Of a stretch of 64,000 nucleotides of DNA, positions 32,465 through 58,830 are shown piece after piece (the first letter of the stretch is position 1; each line of letters opens with the position of its first letter). Both the position numbers and the translations under genes were made by a program. The notes under the pieces were generated by a model that saw nothing but the letters and a program-made list of their open reading frames with translations, made no database searches and was not told the origin of the DNA. Origin of the DNA: a phage; the sequence record PX880100.1. One strand, written 5' to 3'.

Positions 32465-32958
32465 AATTTTATTCTAAGTCTAGGAATTTCAGGCTCCTCT
32501 TGATGGACTTGATAAATAACAGGGCTATTATTTACCAGAATATAGCTTATATAAGCTGGAACATAGGATAATACAAATGGATATGGAACTTTAGCTACAT
32601 AGCATTGGTATTTTCCGTTATAAATTCTAGCTGAATGCAAAACTTTAGAGGTGACAACATCATAGAACGTAGTTTTCTTCCAGTTAATAAGATTTCCATC
32701 AGAATCTATAAATTGGCTACGCTTTGACCCAACTAATTGAGACAACATTGATATTCTACCTCTAATAGGATAGAGCTTGTATGGTAATTCTTTCCGTTTC
32801 TCAAATAGAATAAGCCTACGTTGAGAAAAAGTGCCAGGCAACTTCCTGTTATCTAGCACATATTTATTATACCTTGTTGTAATTACGGAATAATCACCTT
32901 CTTGTTCAATTGATACAAATGCCCGTAAAGCATATACGGGCAATTTGAAATCAAGCAC
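32461..32958 (-). CDS. hypothetical protein (165 aa)
   Basis: ORF between the polymerase and helicase genes on the same strand; track start is GTG and overlaps the polymerase stop. Confidence 0.3.
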   Translation of the reverse strand: MLDFKLPVYALRAFVSIEQEGDYSVITTRYNKYVLDNRKLPGTFSQRRLILFEKRKELPYKLYPIRGRISMLSQLVGSKRSQFIDSDGNLINWKKTTFYDVVTSKVLHSARIYNGKYQCYVAKVPYPFVLSYVPAYISYILVNNSPVIYQVHQEEPEIPRLRIKL

Positions 32959-35518
32959 CGAGAATCCTTCTCACGTTATCCAAATCTTTACATACAGCAA
33001 TAAACTTATCATCCTTGTATTTGCTATGATCTGGATGCTCTTTATCCATTGCAGCTAGTTTCTTATACTCGAACTCTGCATCAAGTAATACACCCTTGAC
33101 ATAACGAGTATATTCATCATCATCAATACAAGCGATTGATGGGTGCTGTTTCTTCATCTTACCACAAGAATAGTCACGAGAACCTCCAGCTTCAGAATCT
33201 GAGTCAATACCAATCGGACAACCAGGAATACTGATACCACGGTCTTTCTGAATATTACGAATCAGGATTTCATTGTATTGGTCGATCAAATCCTCACGAA
33301 CAATAGCAACTACGGAGTCGTGAACCAGCATAACAATCTTCATCTCTTGTTCTAGGCCAAGAGAAATGATCTCATTATCTGCATCTACAGCACCTAAAAG
33401 GAGACTATCAGAAGAAGCAGACTGAATGATTGCGTTAAATCCAGAACGGATTTCTTCACCCTGAACACCACGGTCTTCGGAATGGATATTATGCAGACGA
33501 CGTTTACGCCCAAAGTGACTATAGATAAATCCATGATTCTTGATCTGGTCGTGACATTTATCAATCCAACGCTTAAGCTGCGGGAACTGACCGAAGTAAG
33601 TTTCGATATAGTCCTTCGCATCCGCAACAGTACACTCTACAAACGGTTCTCCTGTCTTAGCAGCCTGTTCCAAAAGAGCTTCGTTAACAGAATGAGCTAC
33701 CTTAGCCGGGCCAGAACCATACAAAATACCAAAGGTGATTGCTTTAGCTGCTTGACGCAGAGCTGGGAATAACTTTTTAACATCACGAGGCTCGCATTGG
33801 AGCTTAAATACCATGTGTGCGATGTTAGAGTGGAAGTCAGGGTATTTATCTGGTTCATTTCTCATGTTGATAAATACTTGTTGCATATTTCTATCACCAG
33901 ATAGAACAGCAGCATAATAAACTTCCGCAGTTGTTAAGTCCCATGCAATTACACGATACCCGGGAGGGGCTACTACACAACCCTTGATAATAGATTCATC
34001 ACGAGGTAACTGTTGCAGATTCAGTTTACCAGAAGAACTCAGACGACCAGAAGTAGTCATATGTTCATGGAAGCCAGTACGAATGCAACCATCAGCATCA
34101 ATGCTCAGAAGAATCTTCTCAACGTAAGTAGAGATCAGCTTAGTCAGCTTACGAATCTCTAGTAGGGTCTTAGCAATTGGATGCTGCGTAGACAATTCGT
34201 TCAGAGCTTCTGCATCTGTAGAGTCTGCTCCAGTATCCGTCAATTTACCTGTTGGAGTTAAGCCAACATAATCAAACAGAAGAACACGGAGTTGTTTAAC
34301 AGAGTTTGGGTTAAACGCTTCGTTCTGATCTTTCTCTAGCTGAACGACTTCTGGATAAGTATACAGCTTTTCACGAGCTTTATTCAGATTATGAGTTAAC
34401 TGGTACTGTGCTTCTTTCAAGCGATCAATAGAAATTGGTACACCACGATCTTCAACACGCTGGAGAAATACGCAACCAGGCATTAGAACATCATAATACA
34501 GACTGCAAAGTTTTTCATTCTTCTCAATTTTTGGTAAGAAGAAATTGTGCAAACGTAGGGTGGCATCGGTATCTTTTGCAGCGTAAGGCCACATAATATC
34601 AAACGGAATTAAATCATAGGTGAAATCTTCTTTCTTGATCTTATGTGCTTTGCAGTAATCATCCTTGAACTTATCTAGTTCAAAGTCATAGTCACCCATA
34701 TCGGTATACTTCATTGCTAGAGATTTCAAGCCATGAGTACCACGACGTTCATCTAGAACATAATGCTGCAACATAGTATCATGGAGCCTGCGTTCTTTAT
34801 GCGCTTTATCAAAAGTAAGTCCCAGATGGTACTTATAAAAGTGCATATCAAACTTCAAGTTGTGAAAAACAATAGTGTGGTTTTCACTATCCAGAATTTT
34901 CTGGAGATAATATACTGCAACCTCTGTGAGACAATCAGAATCGATATATACACCCTGATATTCTTGGTGAGACATAGAAACACCAAGCAGATAACCATCT
35001 CGACAGTATAGTGCTGAGGTTTCGGAGTCGAATGCGACAGGTCCGATAACCATATTATACACCATCTTGATATATTCTTCCGCCTCGTCAGGGTCAGTAA
35101 TAGGACGGTAATCACCAGCTTTTGCAATCTTCTCACGACCATTGATAATATCGTGGATATTTTCTACTGTTGCATCGAAAACTGGTTTCATTTCAGGCTT
35201 AAAGTGTAACTGGGCTGGGCTGATACTCGCAATCCAGTTAGCATATCCATTATACTCTACACGTTTACCAGTATAGTCACCAATGCCTTTCTTACCTGCG
35301 AAATACAGGAAAGGTTCAGCACCTACCAGTATAACAAAATCATAATCATTCGGGTCAAATGGGTTTTCCGGAGTCCCAATAGTAATATGCTTTTTGAGCA
35401 AACGACCGGATAACTTCTCGTTACACATATGGAATACATCAACTTCCTCGCCGTATAGCTGGAAATGTTTATCGTAACGAGTGTTATTTAGAGCTTTATC
35501 AACTACTGCGATTTTCAA
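32951..35518 (-). CDS. family A DNA polymerase with 3'-5' exonuclease domain (T5 DNA polymerase-like, 855 aa)
   Basis: Same length as T5 DNA polymerase; Pol I-type motifs (RRLHDTML..., KxxxFGxxYG-like AKAITFGILYGSG, VHDS); TTG start preceded by RBS AGAGGAG. Confidence 0.9.
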   Translation of the reverse strand: MKIAVVDKALNNTRYDKHFQLYGEEVDVFHMCNEKLSGRLLKKHITIGTPENPFDPNDYDFVILVGAEPFLYFAGKKGIGDYTGKRVEYNGYANWIASISPAQLHFKPEMKPVFDATVENIHDIINGREKIAKAGDYRPITDPDEAEEYIKMVYNMVIGPVAFDSETSALYCRDGYLLGVSMSHQEYQGVYIDSDCLTEVAVYYLQKILDSENHTIVFHNLKFDMHFYKYHLGLTFDKAHKERRLHDTMLQHYVLDERRGTHGLKSLAMKYTDMGDYDFELDKFKDDYCKAHKIKKEDFTYDLIPFDIMWPYAAKDTDATLRLHNFFLPKIEKNEKLCSLYYDVLMPGCVFLQRVEDRGVPISIDRLKEAQYQLTHNLNKAREKLYTYPEVVQLEKDQNEAFNPNSVKQLRVLLFDYVGLTPTGKLTDTGADSTDAEALNELSTQHPIAKTLLEIRKLTKLISTYVEKILLSIDADGCIRTGFHEHMTTSGRLSSSGKLNLQQLPRDESIIKGCVVAPPGYRVIAWDLTTAEVYYAAVLSGDRNMQQVFINMRNEPDKYPDFHSNIAHMVFKLQCEPRDVKKLFPALRQAAKAITFGILYGSGPAKVAHSVNEALLEQAAKTGEPFVECTVADAKDYIETYFGQFPQLKRWIDKCHDQIKNHGFIYSHFGRKRRLHNIHSEDRGVQGEEIRSGFNAIIQSASSDSLLLGAVDADNEIISLGLEQEMKIVMLVHDSVVAIVREDLIDQYNEILIRNIQKDRGISIPGCPIGIDSDSEAGGSRDYSCGKMKKQHPSIACIDDDEYTRYVKGVLLDAEFEYKKLAAMDKEHPDHSKYKDDKFIAVCKDLDNVRRILGA

Positions 35519-35579: not shown

Positions 35580-35609
35580 ATTATACCAAATCTTTAAGCG
35601 ATTCAGCAA
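35580..35609 (-). promoter_or_regulatory. sigma70-type promoter for the DNA polymerase gene
   Basis: Minus strand: TTGCTG, 18-bp spacer, TATAAT; the -10 overlaps the primase stop codon. Confidence 0.5.
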
Positions 35610-36471
35610 CTAAAATTTCAATACGTTTTGCTAACATATCAATTTCATCTTTGTTTAAGTCACCTGGATCTTTGCCTTCTGGTAGAAGAAAGTTAGCAAC
35701 TACAGGTGTTAAACGCGTTTTTGTACGAATTAGCTTAGCCAATGCTTGTGCAGCCTTATTACCAGAAGCATCATTATCTAATAAGATAACAACAACTTTA
35801 ACACCAGCAATAATATAAGGACTGAACTTATCTGCAATGTTATCCGAGGTAAACTGATGTGTACCAAAGCAGCAAGAAGCATAGTCTATACCATTATCCT
35901 CTAGGTTCAGCATATCAAAGATACCTTCAACTAGAATAAGAACTGGAGTATTATATCGTACAGGGAAAATCGGTGGTGAAACTTGTTTTGGTTTTACTAA
36001 GTATTTAGGAGGGGCAGAACTGTTTATAGAACGACCCAAAAATAGGATATTGCGTCCAACAGCATCTGTGATTGGGAATACAATTCTGCCTTCCCAGTCT
36101 GCTTGGTGTTGGAAAGCAAAATATTTCTTCAAGGTCTTAGAACTTATACCTCGGAAATCACCTTCGAAAAGGTAAGCAGATTCAGGAATTGCAAGATTTG
36201 TAGATCCATTCCTAATCTCTGAAATCTTTTTACGTACCTGCGATAGTCTTGGGGACTGTCGGTACTGAGTCTCATTAAAATAATGGTAAATGCTCGGTAT
36301 ACCTTTACCGAAGCCACAACTCAAGCAGTGCATAATACCTGTTTCAGGATCAATACGCAAACTTGGGTGTTTATCGTCATGATCTGGATTGAGACAACAG
36401 ATGAGGATGTCCCCACCTGTGTCTTTATATTCAATGCCTTTCAGATCAAGTAGTTCTGTTATTCTACTCAT
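35581..36471 (-). CDS. DnaG-like DNA primase (296 aa)
   Basis: N-terminal zinc ribbon (CCLNPDHDDKHPSLRID...HCLSCG) and Toprim motifs (LVEGIFDML, LLDNDASG). Confidence 0.75.
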   Translation of the reverse strand: MSRITELLDLKGIEYKDTGGDILICCLNPDHDDKHPSLRIDPETGIMHCLSCGFGKGIPSIYHYFNETQYRQSPRLSQVRKKISEIRNGSTNLAIPESAYLFEGDFRGISSKTLKKYFAFQHQADWEGRIVFPITDAVGRNILFLGRSINSSAPPKYLVKPKQVSPPIFPVRYNTPVLILVEGIFDMLNLEDNGIDYASCCFGTHQFTSDNIADKFSPYIIAGVKVVVILLDNDASGNKAAQALAKLIRTKTRLTPVVANFLLPEGKDPGDLNKDEIDMLAKRIEILVAESLKDLV

Positions 36472-37991
36472 ATATCGCTGGCCTGTTCACCTGTTGAATT
36501 TTCAGTTTTGTCTTTCTTAGCACGTTTAGGTTGAGCCGGCTTATCCTTCTCAATAGGGATAACGAACTCAGCTTCCATTTGAGATATATCTTCCATTGCT
36601 AGGTTGGTAGTGTTATCCATTCGCAGAGTTTCCCAGTTCATTTTAGGCATAAACTTCACGCTATCAGAAGAACGAGTCTTAACGAAGTCAAACATAATAG
36701 CACCTTGACCATTATCAGCTTTTGCAGCGTTAAGATTAGCAGCCATGTCGGCGGAATCAAGAATCCCCTTTGACATACGTGTTCTACCATCTTGATCAAT
36801 CTGGTAAGGAGCTACACCAGCCACGTTATGTTTCTGGCAGATAGATTTGAAAGACGAGCTAACAACCATCTGTTCTTTCCAGTCATACATATCAATGGTT
36901 TTAGAGTCTGGAAGTCGGGTTTGGTTAATATAGTCCAGTAAAGCTACTGTAACTTTATCTCCATATCTAGCAACTAATTTATTTAATTCTACGTCAACTG
37001 TTGTAATAGATAGCTCAGGGTCATAAACAATAATCATAGGAGTATGTAGCTCATACCCTTCTATTAGCTTACTTTCCATATCGTAGAAATCACTCATCTT
37101 AGCCATTGTGTACTGTTTAACGAAGTTATCGAAAAGCTCTTCACCCCCATTAAACATTCTAGCTCTAGTTCTGGCTAATCTCAATAGAGCTGCACCTTCT
37201 AGAGTATTATTACGCATTGCTAATGCTGATACACCAGCTAACATGGCTAGATTACGTCTAAATACTTCATGTTCTTTCATCTCAATTGAGAAGTATGGAG
37301 CAATATCTCCATTCAAATATTGCTGAACCTGTATGTTTGAACAGATAATGGATTTACCAGTACCACGCCAACCACCAAGCAGTAACGTTTCTGTGCGAGC
37401 TAAACCAATTTGAGCGTCGAACTCATTACAAATACCAAGAGCGATTAAGTTCAGTTTGGTATCTTCTTCTCTCTGGAAAATACGCATGTTATCTGCGTTG
37501 AATACTTTTCCAGTATTCGTTACTTTCTCTTCTAATTTTAAGTGAAGGGAGGCAACTCGGTTGAGAATTTCTCCCTGATCCAGCATTGTTAAATCTTGAA
37601 GCACGTCTGTTTCTAGAAGCTTCAGGAATAAATCTTGTGTATATTCGGCTTCTAGGACTTCAAGTGCCTGTTCCATGCTCACTTCTGGAATTTGAGTGTT
37701 AGCTAAGACGACTAGAGCTTGAGAAAGGCGGGCGTTCCTATTAGCTTCAAGCATAAGTGCGTCAATGGACGGCATTGTGTTATATTTTTTATAATAATTC
37801 TGGACGGCTTGGTAAATTGAGGAGAAAGCGTCATTAAAATGATCTTTATGCAGTTTTGAGAATGTTTCCAATGCTATTTGCTTCTGTTCGGAAGCTAGAA
37901 GCATCTTCAACACTACAGCTTGCACGTTAAACAAGGTCATTCTCCTTTGCACGCTTTCGTGCCTTCTAAATGCAAAAAGGGGAAGGAGCAT
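36468..37991 (-). CDS. DnaB-like replicative helicase (507 aa)
   Basis: RecA-fold P-loop GGWRGTGKS in the C-terminal half with an N-terminal helical domain; overlaps the primase gene start. N-terminus uncertain (alternative ATG at 37940). Confidence 0.6.
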   Translation of the reverse strand: MLLPLFAFRRHESVQRRMTLFNVQAVVLKMLLASEQKQIALETFSKLHKDHFNDAFSSIYQAVQNYYKKYNTMPSIDALMLEANRNARLSQALVVLANTQIPEVSMEQALEVLEAEYTQDLFLKLLETDVLQDLTMLDQGEILNRVASLHLKLEEKVTNTGKVFNADNMRIFQREEDTKLNLIALGICNEFDAQIGLARTETLLLGGWRGTGKSIICSNIQVQQYLNGDIAPYFSIEMKEHEVFRRNLAMLAGVSALAMRNNTLEGAALLRLARTRARMFNGGEELFDNFVKQYTMAKMSDFYDMESKLIEGYELHTPMIIVYDPELSITTVDVELNKLVARYGDKVTVALLDYINQTRLPDSKTIDMYDWKEQMVVSSSFKSICQKHNVAGVAPYQIDQDGRTRMSKGILDSADMAANLNAAKADNGQGAIMFDFVKTRSSDSVKFMPKMNWETLRMDNTTNLAMEDISQMEAEFVIPIEKDKPAQPKRAKKDKTENSTGEQASDI

Positions 37992-38022: not shown

Positions 38023-38790
38023 TTATTCAGCAGCCGCAGCTTTTGCATCCAGTTTAGCACGCTTAGCGGCACCATCATAGTCCTTAGCAACCAGACCGCG
38101 ACGAGACAGCATAGATTTAACACCGCGCTCAGACTTACCAGTTTTCTCAGCGATCTCAGCAACAGTCATGTTAACCAGATCCAGACCTTCTAACAGATCT
38201 TCACGAGTTTTAGCACTTGAAGTTTCCTGTACCGGCATAGCAGCGATACGACCTTCACGAAGTAGGCTCAGAGCTTTACCACGGATCTGCTTGATATTAC
38301 GACCGAAGTGAGCAGCGATAGCTTCAATAGTAGCACCAGCAACAACCTGATTAACAAAATCAGTTTCTTCATCCGGAGTGAAGGAACGAACAGCAGCAGC
38401 TTTTTCAGTTGGCTTAACAGAAGCGGTCATTTCCAGACTCAGGATCTTACCCTGTACCTGTTTAGCACCGAACTGACCACCAGCTACAGCAGCAGCGATT
38501 TCAGCATAGGTATACTGACCAGCATGAGCGTTCAGGAAATCAACCAGTTCAGCTTCCTGCTCAGGAGTCCACGGGGATTTCTGCACTTCGTTAGCTTTTT
38601 GTACTTCAAAACCTTCTTTACGCAGTTTAGAGCCAACAGAGCGAGCAGTAACATCTTTGCCAGTTTCAGCAGCCAGTTCAGCAGCAATAGCAGCTACTTG
38701 TTCTTGAGAGATTACAGAAACACCCAGAGCAGTGGCTTTTGCTTTCAGAGACTCGGTTACACCTTCTACGTTCCAGTTCAGTTTAGACAT
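38023..38790 (-). CDS. putative DNA-binding protein with repeated helix-rich modules (255 aa, T5 D5 position)
   Basis: Three to four repeats of a ~30 aa Ala/Lys-rich module (e.g. MTVAEIAEKTGKSERGVKSMLSRRGL); host-optimised codon usage; a related module occurs in ORF 41699-42109. Confidence 0.4.
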   Translation of the reverse strand: MSKLNWNVEGVTESLKAKATALGVSVISQEQVAAIAAELAAETGKDVTARSVGSKLRKEGFEVQKANEVQKSPWTPEQEAELVDFLNAHAGQYTYAEIAAAVAGGQFGAKQVQGKILSLEMTASVKPTEKAAAVRSFTPDEETDFVNQVVAGATIEAIAAHFGRNIKQIRGKALSLLREGRIAAMPVQETSSAKTREDLLEGLDLVNMTVAEIAEKTGKSERGVKSMLSRRGLVAKDYDGAAKRAKLDAKAAAAE

Positions 38791-42212: not shown

Positions 42213-42488
42213 TTACTCCACCAGGCCAACAGCGAGCATATCATCAATGCTGGCAATCTCCCAATCGTCGGCAATAGCTTCGCATACTGTTAATGTAACA
42301 ATCTCACTATAGGGATAATTACCAGCTACCCAGGTATGTTGGGTAACTACATCCGAATCAGTATCCAAAGTTAATAATACTAAACCGTTATTATCGTTAT
42401 TCCAACTTTTACGATACACGGTTTTTGTTTCACCATCTTTGAGCAAATCTGTTAGTTTACTCACGGCGTTTTCCTTTTTCTTTATCAA
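42213..42488 (-). CDS. hypothetical protein (83-91 aa)
   Basis: Track start is TTG; an in-frame GTG at 42464 with RBS AAGGAAA looks more plausible. Confidence 0.3.
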   Translation of the reverse strand: MIKKKENAVSKLTDLLKDGETKTVYRKSWNNDNNGLVLLTLDTDSDVVTQHTWVAGNYPYSEIVTLTVCEAIADDWEIASIDDMLAVGLVE

Positions 42489-43161
42489 GTTTCAGGGCAG
42501 CCTTAACAGCTTCGTTAATCAACGTAATAATTTCTTCACGAGTCCATTTATACCCCAGAGACTTTACATCAACCCCTAGCTTTTCCAGATGTTTAACAGA
42601 GGCCAACTCGTAATTCATATAATGAACGTTCTGTTGTTTGCCTTCTGATAAAAGCCATACACGGTAGCAACCAACAGGATTATCCATTGCTTTTTTGATT
42701 TCACCGATACACTGGTATCCAGGAACCCAAACAAGCTCACCAACTGCAAATTCTTCTGCTACAGCATCATCAGGAATAATCGGAGGATTCAATGGATCTA
42801 CAATATCATTCAAACGAAGTAGAGCACCGTAGCGTTCCAGAACAGATTTAACCATTGCTACAGAGCGATAATTACGATCGGCAATTTCTTCAAAAGAATC
42901 ACCAGATAAATACTGCTCAATAACGTTGGCTAACTCGATGCCTTCAATAAGTGTGCCACGTTTCTTTTTCTTCATTTCGGCAACTTGAATCTGGCGGTCT
43001 TGCCATTCTTCAATCATCCTTTCCATAGTTGGATTGGATGATACGCCGAGCATTTCACATGCTGCTTTCTTAGTACCACCGTTCTCCAGATGCTCTATAA
43101 CCTTTTTAAAGACTTCATCCGGAATTTCATGGATATGTTTCTTTCTACGAGAACCAGCCAT
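42457..43161 (-). CDS. putative HTH transcriptional regulator (234 aa)
   Basis: Two helix-turn-helix-like segments (TKKAACEMLGVSSNPTMERM; SFEEIADRNYRSVAMVKSVLERYG); ATG at 43161 preceded by RBS GAGAGGAG and the PN25-like promoter. Confidence 0.4.
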   Translation of the reverse strand: MAGSRRKKHIHEIPDEVFKKVIEHLENGGTKKAACEMLGVSSNPTMERMIEEWQDRQIQVAEMKKKKRGTLIEGIELANVIEQYLSGDSFEEIADRNYRSVAMVKSVLERYGALLRLNDIVDPLNPPIIPDDAVAEEFAVGELVWVPGYQCIGEIKKAMDNPVGCYRVWLLSEGKQQNVHYMNYELASVKHLEKLGVDVKSLGYKWTREEIITLINEAVKAALKLDKEKGKRRE

Positions 43162-43229: not shown

Positions 43230-43496
43230 TTACGATTCCTTGAGTAAAGAAGCAAGTTCAGCATAGACTTTATCTAACTCAAAGCCGATGCGAAGAGACA
43301 CGTTTGTTTTCCGTTGTTTAAGTAACCACTCGGATATGTTAGGGATGCCAGCTAATCTATGCGGTACCACCCTACATAGCTTTTCCGAAGTGTCGTAAAC
43401 AGGAACTTTACGTTCCTTTACTGGGAACTTCCTTGTTTCCCATTTTTTATTCTTCACTGTCATTTCTAGCACCCAGCTCTGCCATTGCTTCATCAT
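43230..43496 (-). CDS. hypothetical protein (88 aa)
   Basis: Start moved to ATG 43496 (MMKQWQ...) with GGAGA upstream; overlaps the 3' end of the large helicase gene. Confidence 0.3.
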   Translation of the reverse strand: MMKQWQSWVLEMTVKNKKWETRKFPVKERKVPVYDTSEKLCRVVPHRLAGIPNISEWLLKQRKTNVSLRIGFELDKVYAELASLLKES

Positions 43497-46236
43497 GCAT
43501 ATGTTTCTCCTCATCAGTCATAAACTTATACGGGATTGGCATACACTCGATTTTACAATAGGTTCTGTACCAGTCTACAATATTCTCCGTGTTCATATCC
43601 TTACCAATACCCATCATACCAAGATACATTCTTGCATATTTTGGGTTAGCACTCTGACCTGTTTTAAGGAAGAAATCTTTCTTCTTACCTTTCAGAGCTT
43701 CTATGAATGGTTTGATAGTGACATTTGAACACTTCTTAATATCTTCCCAGAACATCTCGTGCATCTTATGGAAGAATGCAGCTCGATCATTCGGTTTATC
43801 CTTGATATATTGTTCAACATGCTCAACTGTTACATCTTTAATAGACTCAAGATGATAGTAGCGAACAAGAAGTAGTTTAGCTTCATACGCATCTGCATGG
43901 CGTGGAGCACAATAATCAGGAGTTGAATACAAAATAGCTTTGATTCGCTCTTCCGTATATTCCTTCCCAGCACCTTCGATAGTTCCCCAGCTTTCACTGA
44001 AAATATCAATAGTTGCACCCTGATCAAGCAAGTAATAACGTAAAGTACTAGTATAATTCCTAGACTCCAGCTCCCTGCGACGTGCGTATAATTGCTGTGC
44101 TAACTCCAGCCAACCTTCATCAATGTTATATTGCTCAGAACCTGCGGAGAATCCACTCGTAGATTTATCAATAAAATAATAAATGTTCTGAGCGCCACGG
44201 TCGCGCCTGATTGCTTGGAAACGCATGTTTGGCGCTTGGTTGCTGGTTCTAGTAATAACGAATACGTTATCAAAATAGTTGAAATCAACACCACTAGTTA
44301 CGGATGGGCTACATAATAAGCAATCAATTTGTTGGTCAATTAGCTCATTAGTTGTGTAATCCAGAATACGTCGAATATCCACATCAGATGTGGAGTTTGA
44401 GTGGATTTCCTTAACTAACGCACCCGTATTACGACGCAGCGCCATGCCCTTCTCATTCAGTTCATCAGGACCACAATCAGATACCAGAATAGATTTCTCA
44501 CCCATTTCTAGAGAAGTCTGAAGTGCAACCCAAATACTGGATTCATCCGGGAACTCATAAGCATGAGCTTTTGACAGCATCTTACGGTGATGATTATAAA
44601 ATGCTACTGGTTTATCAAACTCAATCAAAGAGCCATATGCTTCAATTGTTTCTGCACTAATATCCCCATCAGATAATATAATAATTTTTGCAGTTGCAAG
44701 AATGTCCCGAAGAACCTGAATACATTCACGACGTTGTTTAACAACCGGGGCGAATAATAGGTCATTCATTACAGCATCACATTCATCGATAAAGATTGCA
44801 TCAATTTGACCAATAAAACTCTTGAACTTATGCAAAGAGTGAATAGTTGTGGACATACGGTCAATAGCACCACGCTTAAAATTAAGCATATCTACAGACT
44901 TATCATATTGTCCTGCACTGAATTTCTTAGCATTTGAAGACACCAGCGCTCTAGTATTGGTAATTGCTAAGAAATTACCTTTAATAACTCCCGAATCTAA
45001 CCAACGCACAACCGCCGTAGTTTTACCTGTACCTAGACTTGCTTTTACAAAAGTCATATAACCTTCTGGTGGCACAGTATTTAATTTCAAGAAGTTATCA
45101 GTTTCTAGAGAATTAGTTTCTAGCTTTTTAAGTGGAATACCTTTTAAAACATCTGGTATATCACGTTTAGAATTATTAACAAATGCTTTCAGAGCCTGTT
45201 TACGACCATTATTAAAGTAATCTTGAATATTGCGACTATTATCTTTAGTTGCAATATATTCTGATAAGGCTGGACGAATTTCTTTTTCTAGCCATGCAAA
45301 ATCAACACCATCCTCCAAAGCTCTATGATAGAGTTTAGGGATAATACGTAGATACACCCCATCCTCAGCTTCTTCTAGTTCGCTGATAGTTTCCTCTACT
45401 TTATCAGAGGCAGCTTTTTTACCTTTAATTTGATCGAGTAAAGAGTAAAACTCCTCCTTAAACTCACCTCTAGTTGTTTCATAGTCAACCAGATTATTGG
45501 GTAAATTTACTTTAGAACCCTTAACAAATACCAGACGTGAAGCACCCTCCGCTTTAAACGGATCTACTATACCATCAATAAATAACGGATCTGCAAAATA
45601 ATGGAGCTGTACGGAAGAGTAATAAGCTAAGTCGGCAATATCAAAGCCATACTTTTGTCTACTACTTTCGTTGATAGATGTAAATAAGAATTTGATTTGA
45701 CCCTGAGTTACTTTAACATTAGATTCTAGTATTAAGTGCATTCGGATACCTGGTTTTAGCCCAGCCGAAGACGATGCATGAGCAATAAACCCTGCATCAA
45801 GAGGAAACATATCCTCACTAATACTATTTAACATTCTAATAATATGTCGAGCCATGCCAACAAGATCAAACTTGTTACAACCACCTGTATCTACAATACC
45901 ATCCACGTCCATTGCAATTATATGACTTGGGTTAGATACATTAAAGTTGCCCTTCTTACGTCGCACATTATTTTTAGGTGCAAGACATCGACCTCGTACC
46001 GCAACGATATGAGGGTCAGACGTTAAACGTCTCATAAGAGGAAGCATTTCTACTAGGGTTTGAGGATCAACTTCATCAATTACATCAAACTTGAAGGGCA
46101 TTGAAGCTGGTTTACCTTCAGGATGCTTTGAGGAAAATCTTTTAGCAAAAAGATAGTCTTCTGCTTTAACTTCTCGCCAATTGCCTGTGGCTAAATCGCG
46201 ATGAAATCCTGCATGACCTTGTAGGATTGAGAACAC
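43447..46236 (-). CDS. large P-loop NTPase / putative replication-initiation helicase (929 aa from GTG 46236; track ORF 955 aa from TTG 46314)
   Basis: Walker A FVKASLGTGKTT and Walker B/DExx AIFIDECD in the middle of the protein; N-terminal ~400 aa carries acidic clusters (IIAMDVDGIVDTGG) that could be a primase-polymerase-type domain. GTG 46236 is preceded by AGGAG at a 7-nt spacing. Confidence 0.55.
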   Translation of the reverse strand: MFSILQGHAGFHRDLATGNWREVKAEDYLFAKRFSSKHPEGKPASMPFKFDVIDEVDPQTLVEMLPLMRRLTSDPHIVAVRGRCLAPKNNVRRKKGNFNVSNPSHIIAMDVDGIVDTGGCNKFDLVGMARHIIRMLNSISEDMFPLDAGFIAHASSSAGLKPGIRMHLILESNVKVTQGQIKFLFTSINESSRQKYGFDIADLAYYSSVQLHYFADPLFIDGIVDPFKAEGASRLVFVKGSKVNLPNNLVDYETTRGEFKEEFYSLLDQIKGKKAASDKVEETISELEEAEDGVYLRIIPKLYHRALEDGVDFAWLEKEIRPALSEYIATKDNSRNIQDYFNNGRKQALKAFVNNSKRDIPDVLKGIPLKKLETNSLETDNFLKLNTVPPEGYMTFVKASLGTGKTTAVVRWLDSGVIKGNFLAITNTRALVSSNAKKFSAGQYDKSVDMLNFKRGAIDRMSTTIHSLHKFKSFIGQIDAIFIDECDAVMNDLLFAPVVKQRRECIQVLRDILATAKIIILSDGDISAETIEAYGSLIEFDKPVAFYNHHRKMLSKAHAYEFPDESSIWVALQTSLEMGEKSILVSDCGPDELNEKGMALRRNTGALVKEIHSNSTSDVDIRRILDYTTNELIDQQIDCLLCSPSVTSGVDFNYFDNVFVITRTSNQAPNMRFQAIRRDRGAQNIYYFIDKSTSGFSAGSEQYNIDEGWLELAQQLYARRRELESRNYTSTLRYYLLDQGATIDIFSESWGTIEGAGKEYTEERIKAILYSTPDYCAPRHADAYEAKLLLVRYYHLESIKDVTVEHVEQYIKDKPNDRAAFFHKMHEMFWEDIKKCSNVTIKPFIEALKGKKKDFFLKTGQSANPKYARMYLGMMGIGKDMNTENIVDWYRTYCKIECMPIPYKFMTDEEKHMHDEAMAELGARNDSEE

Positions 46237-46735
46237 AACAATACTCCTGTGTTGGAAATGAAATAAGTTTTCTTTAGGACTATTCAGAAAGAATAGAACA
46301 ACTGTTACTGTCAATTTCTCAACAAATTAATTGCAAATACTGAAGTGGGGTGGCAACTTCCACTTTCACGCTACACTGCCGCTTCACTATACCGCACAAA
46401 TCCTTGAGGATGGCCGCTAAGCCAGATTTGCTCACCTAATGCTTCATGTACTAGCTCATACTAGATGTAGTATACCTTACGTCATCACTTCTCAGAGTTT
46501 TTCACTCTTCCCGTCTCACTTCACAACCACCTCACACTAGGTTGCTTCGAGGCCTTACCAGGGTTCCTACGGGATGTAGATCGCTAAGTATTCTATTAAT
46601 TATTTGTTTAAAAACCAACACGTAACAGTTAAAACAACCCTTAATGGGGCAGCCTAACTGTTCCGTATCGCGGATTGTAAACAAGAAAAATTAGCAAAAT
46701 CAATTTTTACTAATGTCTCTCGATTCAATATAAAT
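46237..46735 (-). other. long ORF-free 5' leader / intergenic region upstream of the large helicase gene
   Basis: About 500 nt between the promoter at 46736-46764 and the helicase start contain only 2-3 codon ORFs and are GC-richer than flanking DNA, with purine-rich GTGA/AGTGA repeats on the transcribed strand. Confidence 0.5.
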
Positions 46736-46764
46736 ATTATATCAAGATTTTGGGCATCCTGCAA
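46736..46764 (-). promoter_or_regulatory. sigma70-type promoter
   Basis: Minus strand: TTGCAG, 17-bp spacer, TATAAT, with AAAATTTT upstream. Confidence 0.5.
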
Positions 46765-57991: not shown

Positions 57992-58830
57992 TGCAACAAT
58001 ACTTAAAAATTTTGACAGATGTAATTTTACTAGGTGAACCCCGTAATGACCGTACAGGAACAGGCACAGTTTCAATTTTTGATTCCTATGCTAAGTTTGA
58101 CCTACGTGAAGGGTTCCCGGCTGTAACTACTAAACGCCTGGCCTGGAAATCAGTAGTAGGAGAACTCTTATGGTTCCTATCTGGGTCTACAAATCTCCAT
58201 GATCTGCGTGTATTCACATTTGGTCGTGACGAAGGACAGTGGACTATCTGGACCCCAAATTATGAAGACCAAGCTATAAGTATGGGGTATGATAAGGGTA
58301 ACCTAGGACCAGTATATGGTAAACAGTGGCGTAACTTTGGTGGGCGAGATCAGATTCTAGAACTTATTGAAGGACTCAAGAATAATCCTCATGGCCGCAG
58401 ACATCTAGTTTCTGCATGGAACGTAGCTGAACTAGACAAAATGGCGTTACCACCATGTCACTACGGCTTCCAGTGTTATGTAAGTAACGATGGATACCTA
58501 GATCTTAAATGGACACAACGTTCTGTAGATTGTTTCCTCGGTTTACCTTTCAATATTGCTAGTTATGCTTTATTAACGCATATATTAGCAAAACTGACAG
58601 GATTAAAACCTCGTTATCTTATCTTTAGTGGCGGTGATACTCATATCTATAATGACCACATGGAACAGGTAGAAGAACAGGTAAAACGTAAACCTCGTGC
58701 TTTACCTACTCTAGTAATGCCAGAGTTTGTAGATCTTTACGATTTATTAGAAAATAATACGGCAGCTTGGTCATTCCATTTAGAGGGGTATGATCCTCAC
58801 CCAGCTCTTAAAGCTAAGATGTCTTCTTAA
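57991..58830 (+). CDS. thyA: thymidylate synthase (279 aa)
   Basis: Active-site region MALPPCHYGFQCYV with catalytic Cys, plus other ThyA blocks (GDTHIYNDH). Confidence 0.9.
   Translation: MQQYLKILTDVILLGEPRNDRTGTGTVSIFDSYAKFDLREGFPAVTTKRLAWKSVVGELLWFLSGSTNLHDLRVFTFGRDEGQWTIWTPNYEDQAISMGYDKGNLGPVYGKQWRNFGGRDQILELIEGLKNNPHGRRHLVSAWNVAELDKMALPPCHYGFQCYVSNDGYLDLKWTQRSVDCFLGLPFNIASYALLTHILAKLTGLKPRYLIFSGGDTHIYNDHMEQVEEQVKRKPRALPTLVMPEFVDLYDLLENNTAAWSFHLEGYDPHPALKAKMSS

Follow-up and report, generated by a model that had tools for sequence, protein, structure and literature searches.

The window analysed here, 64,000 nucleotides of sequence record PX880100.1, comes from a T5-like phage (Tequintavirus). 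Its minus strand, which carries all the features of the gene described below, contains an open reading frame whose longest form (43447..46314) starts at a TTG and encodes 955 amino acids; an in-frame GTG at 46236 gives a product of 929 amino acids. The true start is this GTG, and the coding sequence of the 929-aa protein, probably a primase-helicase of the D2 type, runs over 43447..46236 (GTG 46236-46234, stop codon 43449-43447). The initial annotation had pointed to the GTG for its proper AGGAG. This choice is borne out by the annotations of T5 (AY692264) and of phage Lindwurm, which give the same gene boundaries and the same GTG, and by the N-termini of all homologues, which begin at the GTG column of the alignment with M-[FLI]-[TS]-[IVF]-[LI]; Vibrio phage Ceto has an ATG at this column. 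The Shine-Dalgarno AGGAG (46244..46248), 7 nt upstream of the GTG, is identical in T5 and Lindwurm, and in Lindwurm an RBS feature is annotated at this motif ahead of the D2-type gene. Moreover, the T5 ORF expressed from the same GTG by Wong et al. yielded an active enzyme (PMC3632103). The TTG at 46314 was rejected as a start: the equivalent stretch of T5 is interrupted by an in-frame TAA and lacks any alternative start codon. The longer ORF is therefore an artefact, and its 26 additional codons (46237..46314) are a spurious, non-coding extension, as the homologue starts also indicate.

The gene product is the orthologue of the T5-family D2 helicase. Aligned over 926 aa, it shows 92% identity with T5 D2 (T5p106, AAU05245.1), and it matches PHROG 3712 over its full length (E=0; residues 1-926 against profile positions 1-927 of 927). 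The two proteins have identical Walker A, Walker B, V and VI motifs, their genes share the GTG start, the RBS and the genomic position, and we found no functionally relevant difference between them. The gene is present in about 900 phage genomes; this spread and the full-length PHROG match place the ORF beyond chance. A homologue search, run first with one sequence and later with a profile, yielded nothing but pieces of this gene in bacterial assemblies, and the useful distant relatives came from an exhaustive search of representative proteins.

The gene lies in the early replication cluster, whose position is conserved: the same neighbours are found in Lindwurm, T5 and Vibrio phage Ceto, and the synteny OBP-D2/D3-ligase-D5-DnaB-DnaG-PolA is kept as far as Ceto. 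As reported by the initial annotation, the phage also encodes a DnaG-like primase (35581..36471), with a Zn-ribbon and a Toprim domain, and a DnaB-like helicase with a DnaB_C domain (36468..37991). The D2 gene and the DnaG/DnaB-type genes occur together in all the Demerecviridae examined. For a phage that already has a DnaG-type primase, the need for a second one is not obvious.

Residues 393-700 (44137..45060) form an SF2 helicase core made of two RecA-like lobes, assigned by profiles and by Foldseek to the UL9/CyRepA/telomere-phage RepA type. The invariance of its motifs was counted over 30 full-length orthologues. The Walker A motif, A399-SLGTGKT-406 (45019..45042), has G402, G404, K405 and T406 invariant; in the Walker B motif, F482-IDECD-487 (DExD; 44776..44793), F482, D484 and E485 are invariant; and in motif VI, R672-FQAIRRDR-680 (44197..44223), which holds the arginine finger, the invariant residues are R672, Q674, A675, R678 and R680. 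The GTGKT (402-406) and the DExx-type Walker B (482-487) are those that had been noticed in the middle of the protein, and motif VI falls within the residues 668-682 assigned to it by Wong et al. (PMC3632103). Biochemical work on T5 D2 showed an ATPase that is stimulated by DNA and a bipolar, ATP-dependent SF2 helicase (Wong, Sayers & Sanders 2013, PMC3632103), and the K405E substitution abolishes both its ATPase and its helicase activity (PMC3632103). In that work residues 1-388 were left uncharacterised, save for a predicted HTH (308-329) and coiled coils, and a primase domain was not recognised (PMC3632103). The description of the N-terminal part as uncharacterised thus stands for the first ~390 residues, which are unstudied, but not for the whole protein, which is the orthologue of a characterised helicase (PMC3632103).

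The SF2 core is shared with HSV-1 UL9 (PF02399; PDB 9hgj/9hgi), the sole PDB sequence match of D2. With the full-length model, UL9 was also the top Foldseek match (9hgj, 7e-16), with 557-596 aligned columns. The likeness in sequence does not extend beyond the first RecA lobe (residues 391-544): Pfam Herpes_ori_bp (PF02399) matched residues 394-533 at 3e-7, with 29.2 bits for a cut-off of 20, and covered only positions 51-197 of the 820 of the profile. UL9 has no primase domain. Its C-terminal DNA-binding domain carries an RVKNL motif (PMC12543377); in D2 there is no sequence match to UL9 beyond residue 544 and no RVKNL-like motif. Judged by these sequence comparisons, similarity to the first helicase lobe of UL9 is the only basis of the database label “replication origin binding protein”, and the present assignment corrects it. 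In some GenBank records the gene is labelled “DNA primase” or “DNA primase C”.

The N-terminal 390 amino acids matched no curated AEP (archaeo-eukaryotic primase) sequence model of Pfam or NCBIfam at E<=10, and had no relevant match in the PDB, either by phmmer or by hmmsearch with a 28-sequence profile. Weak matches to DUF445, MobA and RNase were discarded as noise. In the structure prediction that had been proposed as a check, the AlphaFold model of residues 1-250 (45487..46236) is confident (pLDDT 89), and Foldseek with this model matched only AEP structures, although distant ones (10-14% identity). It has the AEP catalytic fold, with an N-terminal alpha-beta module and an RRM-like module. 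Among the structures that D2 matches are pRN1 ORF904, the AEP domains of E5/D5 and the helix bundle of pRN1.

Conservation in the orthologues and in 40 distant homologues of residues ~30-250 points the same way. Residues 106-119 (IIAMDVDGIVDTGG) contain the acidic cluster that had been picked out as DxD-like, and this cluster corresponds to AEP motif I: D110-V-D112 in IIAMDVDG (45901..45909), predicted metal ligands at the end of a modelled beta-strand (104-114). Both aspartates are invariant in the 30 full-length orthologues and at least 90% conserved in the 40 distant homologues. The motif II region, of the sxH type, is S155-SSAGLKPGIRM-H167 (45736..45774), whose histidine opens a modelled beta-strand (164-176); this assignment was made by position rather than by superposition. 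Neither S155 nor H167 varies among the 30 orthologues, and S157 and G159 are at least 90% conserved. The motif II histidine is replaced in some distant homologues (by R in P0040), as reported for other AEP families. Motif III (hD) is the aspartate D202 (45631..45633), invariant in the 28-, 30- and 40-sequence alignments. Finally R234 (45535..45537), at least 90% conserved and followed by a hydrophobic beta-strand (235-238), is by its position a candidate for the “Rh” motif IV of PrimPol-PV1/PriS-type AEPs, as defined in PMC5862659. These residues are kept although the AEP domains of the 30 orthologues average 31% identity and orthologues share as little as about 25%.

The fold, the invariant residues and the architectures of the homologues (see below) support residues 1-250 as an AEP primase-polymerase type domain with an intact catalytic triad (D110xD112, H167, D202). 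Of the two possibilities raised by the initial annotation for the N-terminal third, the primase-polymerase is thereby supported, and the origin-binding domain found no support; none of our results points to sequence-specific binding of an origin by any part of D2. Because the AEP-like fold has all its catalytic residues, a second primase, so far overlooked, is probably present in the phage. Our literature search found no description of an AEP domain in T5 D2; an earlier mention is possible in Iyer et al. 2005 or in the supplement of Kazlauskas 2016.

The domain could nevertheless be derived from an AEP and no longer prime. It would then serve the helicase by binding DNA, recognising the origin or promoting oligomerisation, and the DnaG-like protein would do all the priming. 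There are analogies for such a change of role: an inactivated nuclease gave rise to the origin-binding domains of SV40 T-antigen and papillomavirus E1. Many AEP primases need a Zn finger or a PriCT domain to initiate; no Zn finger was found in D2, no PriCT domain was recognisable, and there are no reports of primase activity. The DnaG/DnaB pair of the phage is complete, and viruses almost always have one primase type only (Kazlauskas et al. 2016, PMC4889955). But inactivated domains normally lose their catalytic residues, whereas D110, D112, H167 and D202 are invariant, and these residues are also conserved in related primase-helicases that have no other candidate for the primase. We therefore regard a non-priming domain as improbable.

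Downstream of the D2-type domain the 40 distant homologues carry VapE (9), DUF5906/SF3 helicase (9), PriCT_2 (4), and D5_N or Pox_D5. A reciprocal search started from one distant homologue returned the N-termini of T5-like D2 proteins (~1e-12) and the “DNA primase” of Xylella phage Xfas53, which consists of an AEP-like N-terminus followed by D5_N, DUF5906 and Pox_D5. The D2 AEP domain is thus detectably homologous in sequence to the N-terminus of D5_N/DUF5906/Pox_D5 proteins (for example Xfas53 and P0044), and it also stands N-terminal to PriCT-2, D5_N/SF3-helicase and VapE modules in primase-helicases of mobile elements. It defines an AEP family that has no Pfam model and that extends to the D5/VapE-type primase-helicases of bacterial mobile elements. 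The order of the parts is the same in D2, in pRN1 ORF904, in the poxvirus D5/E5-type primase-helicases and in Xfas53: an N-terminal AEP, a helical domain, a helicase and a C-terminal domain. The motors differ, being a hexameric SF3 helicase in the D5/pRN1 type and a monomeric or dimeric SF2 helicase in D2. The SF3 module (D5_N/DUF5906/Pox_D5) is absent from D2, which has the SF2 core, so that only the AEP domain is common to both; profile comparison detected neither D5_N nor PriCT_2 in D2.

For the helicase module the closest proteins by sequence are CyRepA1/2, initiators of cyanobacterial plasmids, and the telomere-phage RepA (N15/PY54/phiHAP-1); as replication initiators these relatives have experimental support or are annotated as such. 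The origin used by N15 RepA lies within repA itself. NCBIfam CyRepA1 (NF042913) matched residues 393-722 at 4.7e-35, over its helicase half only and with 121.6 bits, below the 200-bit cut-off; phrog_4913 matched at 2e-23, and phiHAP-1 RepA was matched by tblastn. CyRepA/RepA likewise join a primase-type N-terminus to a UL9-like SF2 helicase, and their role in replication has been demonstrated (PMC10079941, PMC4889955). Their N-terminal domain is Toprim/DnaG-like (DUF3854, according to PMC10079941), whereas that of D2 has the unrelated AEP fold and gave no Pfam match to Toprim or DUF3854. Thus one primase type has been exchanged for the other. Fusions of an AEP to an SF2 helicase have already been catalogued, namely the All3500-family AEPs with a UL9-like (pVOG9714) helicase and gp68 of phage PAU (PMC5862659, PMC4889955). 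By their published description these have the same general architecture as D2; T5 is not named in the two surveys.

Between the two modules residues 260-356 (45169..45459) form a four-helix bundle, a possible counterpart of the pRN1 helix-bundle or PriCT domain; the “HTH” that Wong et al. predicted at 308-329 lies within it. The C-terminal domain, residues 701-929 (43450..44136), is all-helical (model pLDDT about 90) and had no match in the Pfam search; it is a candidate DNA-binding or dimerisation domain. E724 is invariant in it, and conservation reaches at least 90% at R720, G740 and G876.

An AEP domain, a helical bundle, a UL9/CyRepA-like SF2 helicase and a helical C-terminus together give the layout of a primase-helicase initiator. 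D2 is therefore probably a single-chain primase-helicase that initiates replication, of a type found in plasmids and viruses, with the AEP at residues 1-250, the bundle at 260-356, the SF2 motor at 393-700 and the helical C-terminus at 701-929. The primase activity, the role of the bundle, any specificity for an origin and the division of labour with DnaG/DnaB are inferred. The AEP module was found in 906 phage records and the helicase module in 907, and the two co-occur.

A function in repair or restart was also considered. As a PrimPol-like enzyme, D2 would remodel stalled or broken forks with its helicase, and its AEP would re-prime or extend across gaps. T5 virion DNA, with its site-specific nicks in one strand, offers a possible target. 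However, both modules of D2 have their closest sequence relatives among proteins that replicate plasmids and phages (CyRepA1, telomere-phage RepA and D5/VapE-type primase-helicases), the gene belongs to the conserved early replication cluster, and the AEP structural neighbours, at 10-14% identity, are too distant for a function to be transferred from them. Such a function is in our view unlikely.

The initial annotation had seen in D2 a second initiation system. This was an overstatement, as the DnaG/DnaB-type proteins are components of the fork, acting in elongation, and no initiator other than D2 is evident in the phage. In a stricter form, D2 would be a self-contained initiation and priming system, redundant with the DnaG-like primase and the DnaB-like helicase and independent of them. 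The conservation of both gene sets together in all the Demerecviridae examined is compatible with this, but when it is as strict as here, across ~900 genomes, it argues for complementary, non-redundant roles; in addition, proteins of the DnaB/DnaG type cannot recognise or open an origin on their own. We hold a redundant system to be very improbable. More plausibly, D2 is an initiator acting upstream of DnaG/DnaB.

As such an initiator, D2 would bind and open duplex DNA early after infection through its ATP-driven motor, and its AEP domain would lay the first primer or primers on the exposed single strand. Like the pRN1 helix-bundle or PriCT domains, the helical bundle (260-356) may hold the template and the initiating nucleotide. 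The primers could then be extended by the T5 DNA polymerase, and the forks would subsequently be run by the separate DnaB-like helicase and DnaG-like primase. More tentatively, and with somewhat less than even confidence, we propose that the Demerecviridae, a large group open to experiment, use two unrelated primases, the AEP of D2 to initiate at internal origins and the DnaG-like protein to serve the lagging strand.

If this is true, D2 would be the long-missing replication initiator of T5, a classical model phage, and the UL9/CyRepA/N15-RepA helicase scaffold would have been combined interchangeably with primases of the Toprim or the AEP type. No other T5 protein has been proposed as initiator, and D2 has so far been studied only as a helicase; a primase-helicase would give a context to its unusual helicase behaviour. 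In the 2016 survey phage RM378 alone has both AEP and DnaG primases (PMC4889955). About 900 sequenced phages would join this very short list of viruses with both types, and the rule that viruses have either an AEP or a DnaG would be overturned.

In the region upstream of the gene no iterons or origin were found, but only short two-copy repeats. A probable promoter lies at 46736..46764 on the minus strand (TTGCAG, 17 nt, TGaTATAAT with an extended -10). It would give a leader of ~500 nt, which has no Rfam match and no AT-rich or skew anomaly; the RNA fold z-score of this leader is -2.5. The promoter was not among the calls of a consensus promoter scan. It is however 100% conserved in T5 and Lindwurm, and it coincides with a “putative promoter” feature of AY692264.

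The phage is T5-like (genus Tequintavirus). In the 2.87-kb region of the helicase gene, identity to Escherichia phages YJin-2024a and Lindwurm is 98%, and the database search gave matches in 507 phage records. On the minus strand the long ORF (43447..46314) begins with TTG and would encode 955 aa; a GTG at 46236, in frame with it and preceded 7 nt 5' by AGGAG, opens an ORF of 929 aa. In this product Walker A (GTGKT) lies at residues 402-406, Walker B (FIDECD) at 482-487 and the acidic cluster IIAMDVDGIVDTGG at 106-119, all as the initial annotation had placed them. The true start is GTG 46236, as that annotation's remark on the AGGAG anticipated. The same GTG is annotated in T5 and in Lindwurm, whose record includes an RBS feature. 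The T5 equivalent of the TTG-GTG stretch holds an in-frame TAA and no start codon; thus the extension is not conserved and TTG 46314 is ruled out. At the aligned position the codon of Vibrio phage Ceto is ATG, and this column is where all homologues start, reading M-[FLI]-[TS]-[IVF]-[LI]. Finally, the T5 ORF expressed from this codon by Wong et al. gave an active enzyme (PMC3632103).

The 929-aa product is D2. PHROG 3712 ('replication origin binding') matches it over its full length (E=0), and over 926 residues it shares 92% identity with T5p106 ('D2') of T5. The T5 protein has ATPase activity stimulated by ssDNA and bipolar helicase activity (3'-5' > 5'-3'); the Walker A change K405E inactivates it, and a role in replication initiation was proposed for it (Wong, Sayers and Sanders, NAR 2013, PMC3632103). 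As a whole the protein is thus not uncharacterised, but the N-terminal third remained unstudied: outside the helicase core (389-690) the same paper reports nothing beyond an HTH prediction (308-329) and coiled coils, with neither truncations nor primase assays.

Residues 1-390 gave zero matches in sequence and profile searches of Pfam, NCBIfam and the PDB. Among 1.84 billion representative proteins, searched exhaustively with HMMER, there were 77 relatives. About 35 share the full architecture of D2 (~900-1000 aa); in about 40 the match is limited to residues ~30-250, within other architectures. A Pfam scan of these 40 detected VapE-like domains in 9, DUF5906 (i.e. the D5-type SF3 helicase P-loop) in 9 and PriCT_2 in 4, and also D5_N, Pox_D5 and a DnaG zinc ribbon. 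The homologous protein P0044 is laid out as [D2-N-like 4-263]-PriCT_2-D5_N-DUF5906-Pox_D5. This order puts its D2-N-like domain in exactly the position that the AEP (archaeo-eukaryotic primase) domain takes in D5/P4-type primase-helicases. A reciprocal search with the P0044 N-terminus recovered T5-like D2 proteins at ~1e-12; its top match was the 'DNA primase' of Xylella phage Xfas53 (843 aa), where a D2-N-like domain also precedes D5_N, DUF5906 and Pox_D5.

The initial annotation had suggested a possible primase-polymerase or origin-binding domain in this region, to be checked by structure prediction. The AlphaFold model, with a 28-sequence alignment as input, is confident (pLDDT 89.4), and its best 50 Foldseek matches in the PDB are AEP-superfamily enzymes only: the LigD polymerase domain (probability 0.99), African swine fever virus PrimPol, RepB', Prim-PolC, the AEP domains of vaccinia D5 and mpox E5, cyanophage S-2L PrimPol, HP0184 and herpes primase. 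The domain therefore has the AEP fold, and it carries the conserved AEP triad. In 30 full-length orthologues, with a mean identity to the window protein of 31% in this domain, the N-terminal invariant positions are D110, D112, S155, H167, Q180, D202 and P217; the helicase motifs are also invariant. Motif I (D110xD112) ends beta-strand 104-114, motif II (S155...H167) opens strand 164-176 and motif III (D202) follows helix 178-196, each where expected in the model. R234 stands before a hydrophobic strand, matching the pattern of the 'Rh' motif IV of AEPs (Kazlauskas et al. 2018, PMC5862659), for which it is a candidate. An AEP-derived domain that had become inactive and merely binds DNA is disfavoured by the invariant triad, since an inactivated domain is not expected to retain the set D110/D112/S155/H167/D202. 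D2 has no zinc finger, and comparing the helical bundle (260-356) with PriCT_2 by profile gave a negative result.

In the helicase module, Pfam Herpes_ori_bp matches residues 394-533 only (E 3e-7), and HSV-1 UL9, the sole match in PDB sequence searches, covers residues 388-544 only. NCBIfam CyRepA1, a cyanobacterial plasmid initiator, matches residues 393-722 at E 4.7e-35, below the family cut-off, and phrog_4913 'replication' matches at 2e-23. By sequence these two and RepA of the telomere phage phiHAP-1, also related, are nearer relatives than UL9. CyRepA proteins have a Toprim-related DUF3854 domain N-terminal to a helicase of this type (PMC10079941), and N15/PY54 RepA a DnaG-type primase domain (PMC4889955). 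For the full-length model (pLDDT 88.4), the best PDB match is UL9 (9hgj, E 7e-16), ahead of other SF2 helicases by six orders of magnitude. UL9 is defined by the domain at its C-terminus that binds DNA and has an RVKNL motif (PMC12543377). D2 shares its first RecA lobe, but the motif is absent and the domain undetectable by sequence; residues 701-929 form a confidently modelled all-helical domain. Support for the common label 'origin binding protein' is thus confined to the first RecA lobe. Either D5 (255 aa; 38023-38790, minus), with a number of weak matches to HTH and sigma-70 region 4, or the 234-aa protein adjoining the helicase gene (42457-43161, minus), with a weak HTH_28 match, could be the sequence-specific DNA-binding partner apparently missing from the helicase.

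The DnaG-like primase and DnaB-like helicase noted initially are indeed present: a DnaG-type primase with Zn ribbon and Toprim (35581..36471) and a DnaB_C helicase (36468..37991), beside a family A polymerase (32951..35518). Gene order is kept as far as Ceto: OBP/D2, HTH proteins, ligase A/B, D5, DnaB-like, DnaG-like, PolA. The AEP domain occurs in 906 phage records and the helicase module in 907, in essentially identical genome sets; thus the fusion is ancestral to Demerecviridae. The best reading of D2 is a primase-helicase initiator composed of AEP primase, helical bundle, SF2 motor and C-terminal domain, which would open the DNA and make the first primers before the DnaB/DnaG pair runs the forks; primase activity, origin specificity and this division of labour are predictions. 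Initiators of the primase-helicase kind are well known. D2 might instead be a restart or repair enzyme resembling PrimPol, but its sequence relatives and gene neighbourhood are replicative. The 'second initiation system' of the initial annotation, read as redundant, is disfavoured by the strict co-conservation of D2 with the DnaB/DnaG set.

AEP-SF2 helicase fusions are known in phage PAU gp68 (PMC4889955) and in All3500-family AEPs with UL9-like helicase domains (PMC5862659). Among the papers searched, none recognises an AEP domain in T5 D2, yet its gene carries the name 'DNA primase' or 'DNA primase C' in some GenBank records. The reading can be put to a direct test in T5, a classical model phage.

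Names conflict. In AY692264 and Wong et al. 'D2' is the helicase (43447-46236) and 'D3' the next HTH protein; in Lindwurm and Ceto 'D2 protein' is the 234-aa HTH protein and the helicase is 'replication origin binding protein'. These discrepancies (entries L003, L001, L002) risk errors in literature transfer. Elsewhere the gene is a 'putative tail protein' or 'U3 snoRNA-associated protein 25' (match records H124, H92). Pieces of it appear as 'hypothetical protein, partial' in Salmonella enterica and Enterococcus faecalis (P0001, P0082), and the 8.8-kb 'Listeria phage LM 4-14-1' record (H102) has a 100% identical helicase core; contamination by a T5-like phage, or mislabelling, is the probable cause in all three. 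In Salmonella phage GE_vB_N5 (MG969412.1, 148.7 kb, ~58452-58700; H95) only residues ~125-199 match the heterologous P0044 query, and fragmentation or a frameshift may affect the gene in this record. Another homologue, P0005, is a 114-aa ORF 96% identical to residues 128-232.

Upstream, a probable promoter, strong and perfectly conserved (TTGCAG-17-TGaTATAAT, 46764-46736, minus), is followed by an unusually long non-coding leader of ~500 nt (46237-46735, minus). Its initial ~135 nt and final ~70 nt are identical in the window, T5 and Lindwurm; in the central ~280 nt (especially ~46310-46590) T5 is unrelated to the other two, apart from the island GGCTTAGCGGCC. An Rfam search of the leader gave no match, and the z-score of its RNA fold is -2.5. 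The stretch may represent a swapped cassette, serve as a regulatory leader or be origin-related DNA. Downstream, a free-standing HNH endonuclease gene adjoins the helicase gene's 3' end in T5 and Lindwurm and is absent from the window, where, within 43230-43514 (minus), a T5p108 homologue (77 aa, 96% identical) follows directly. Its probable start is 43463, giving an overlap of ~17 nt with the helicase stop; the 94-aa version in the mechanical ORF list is an over-extension.
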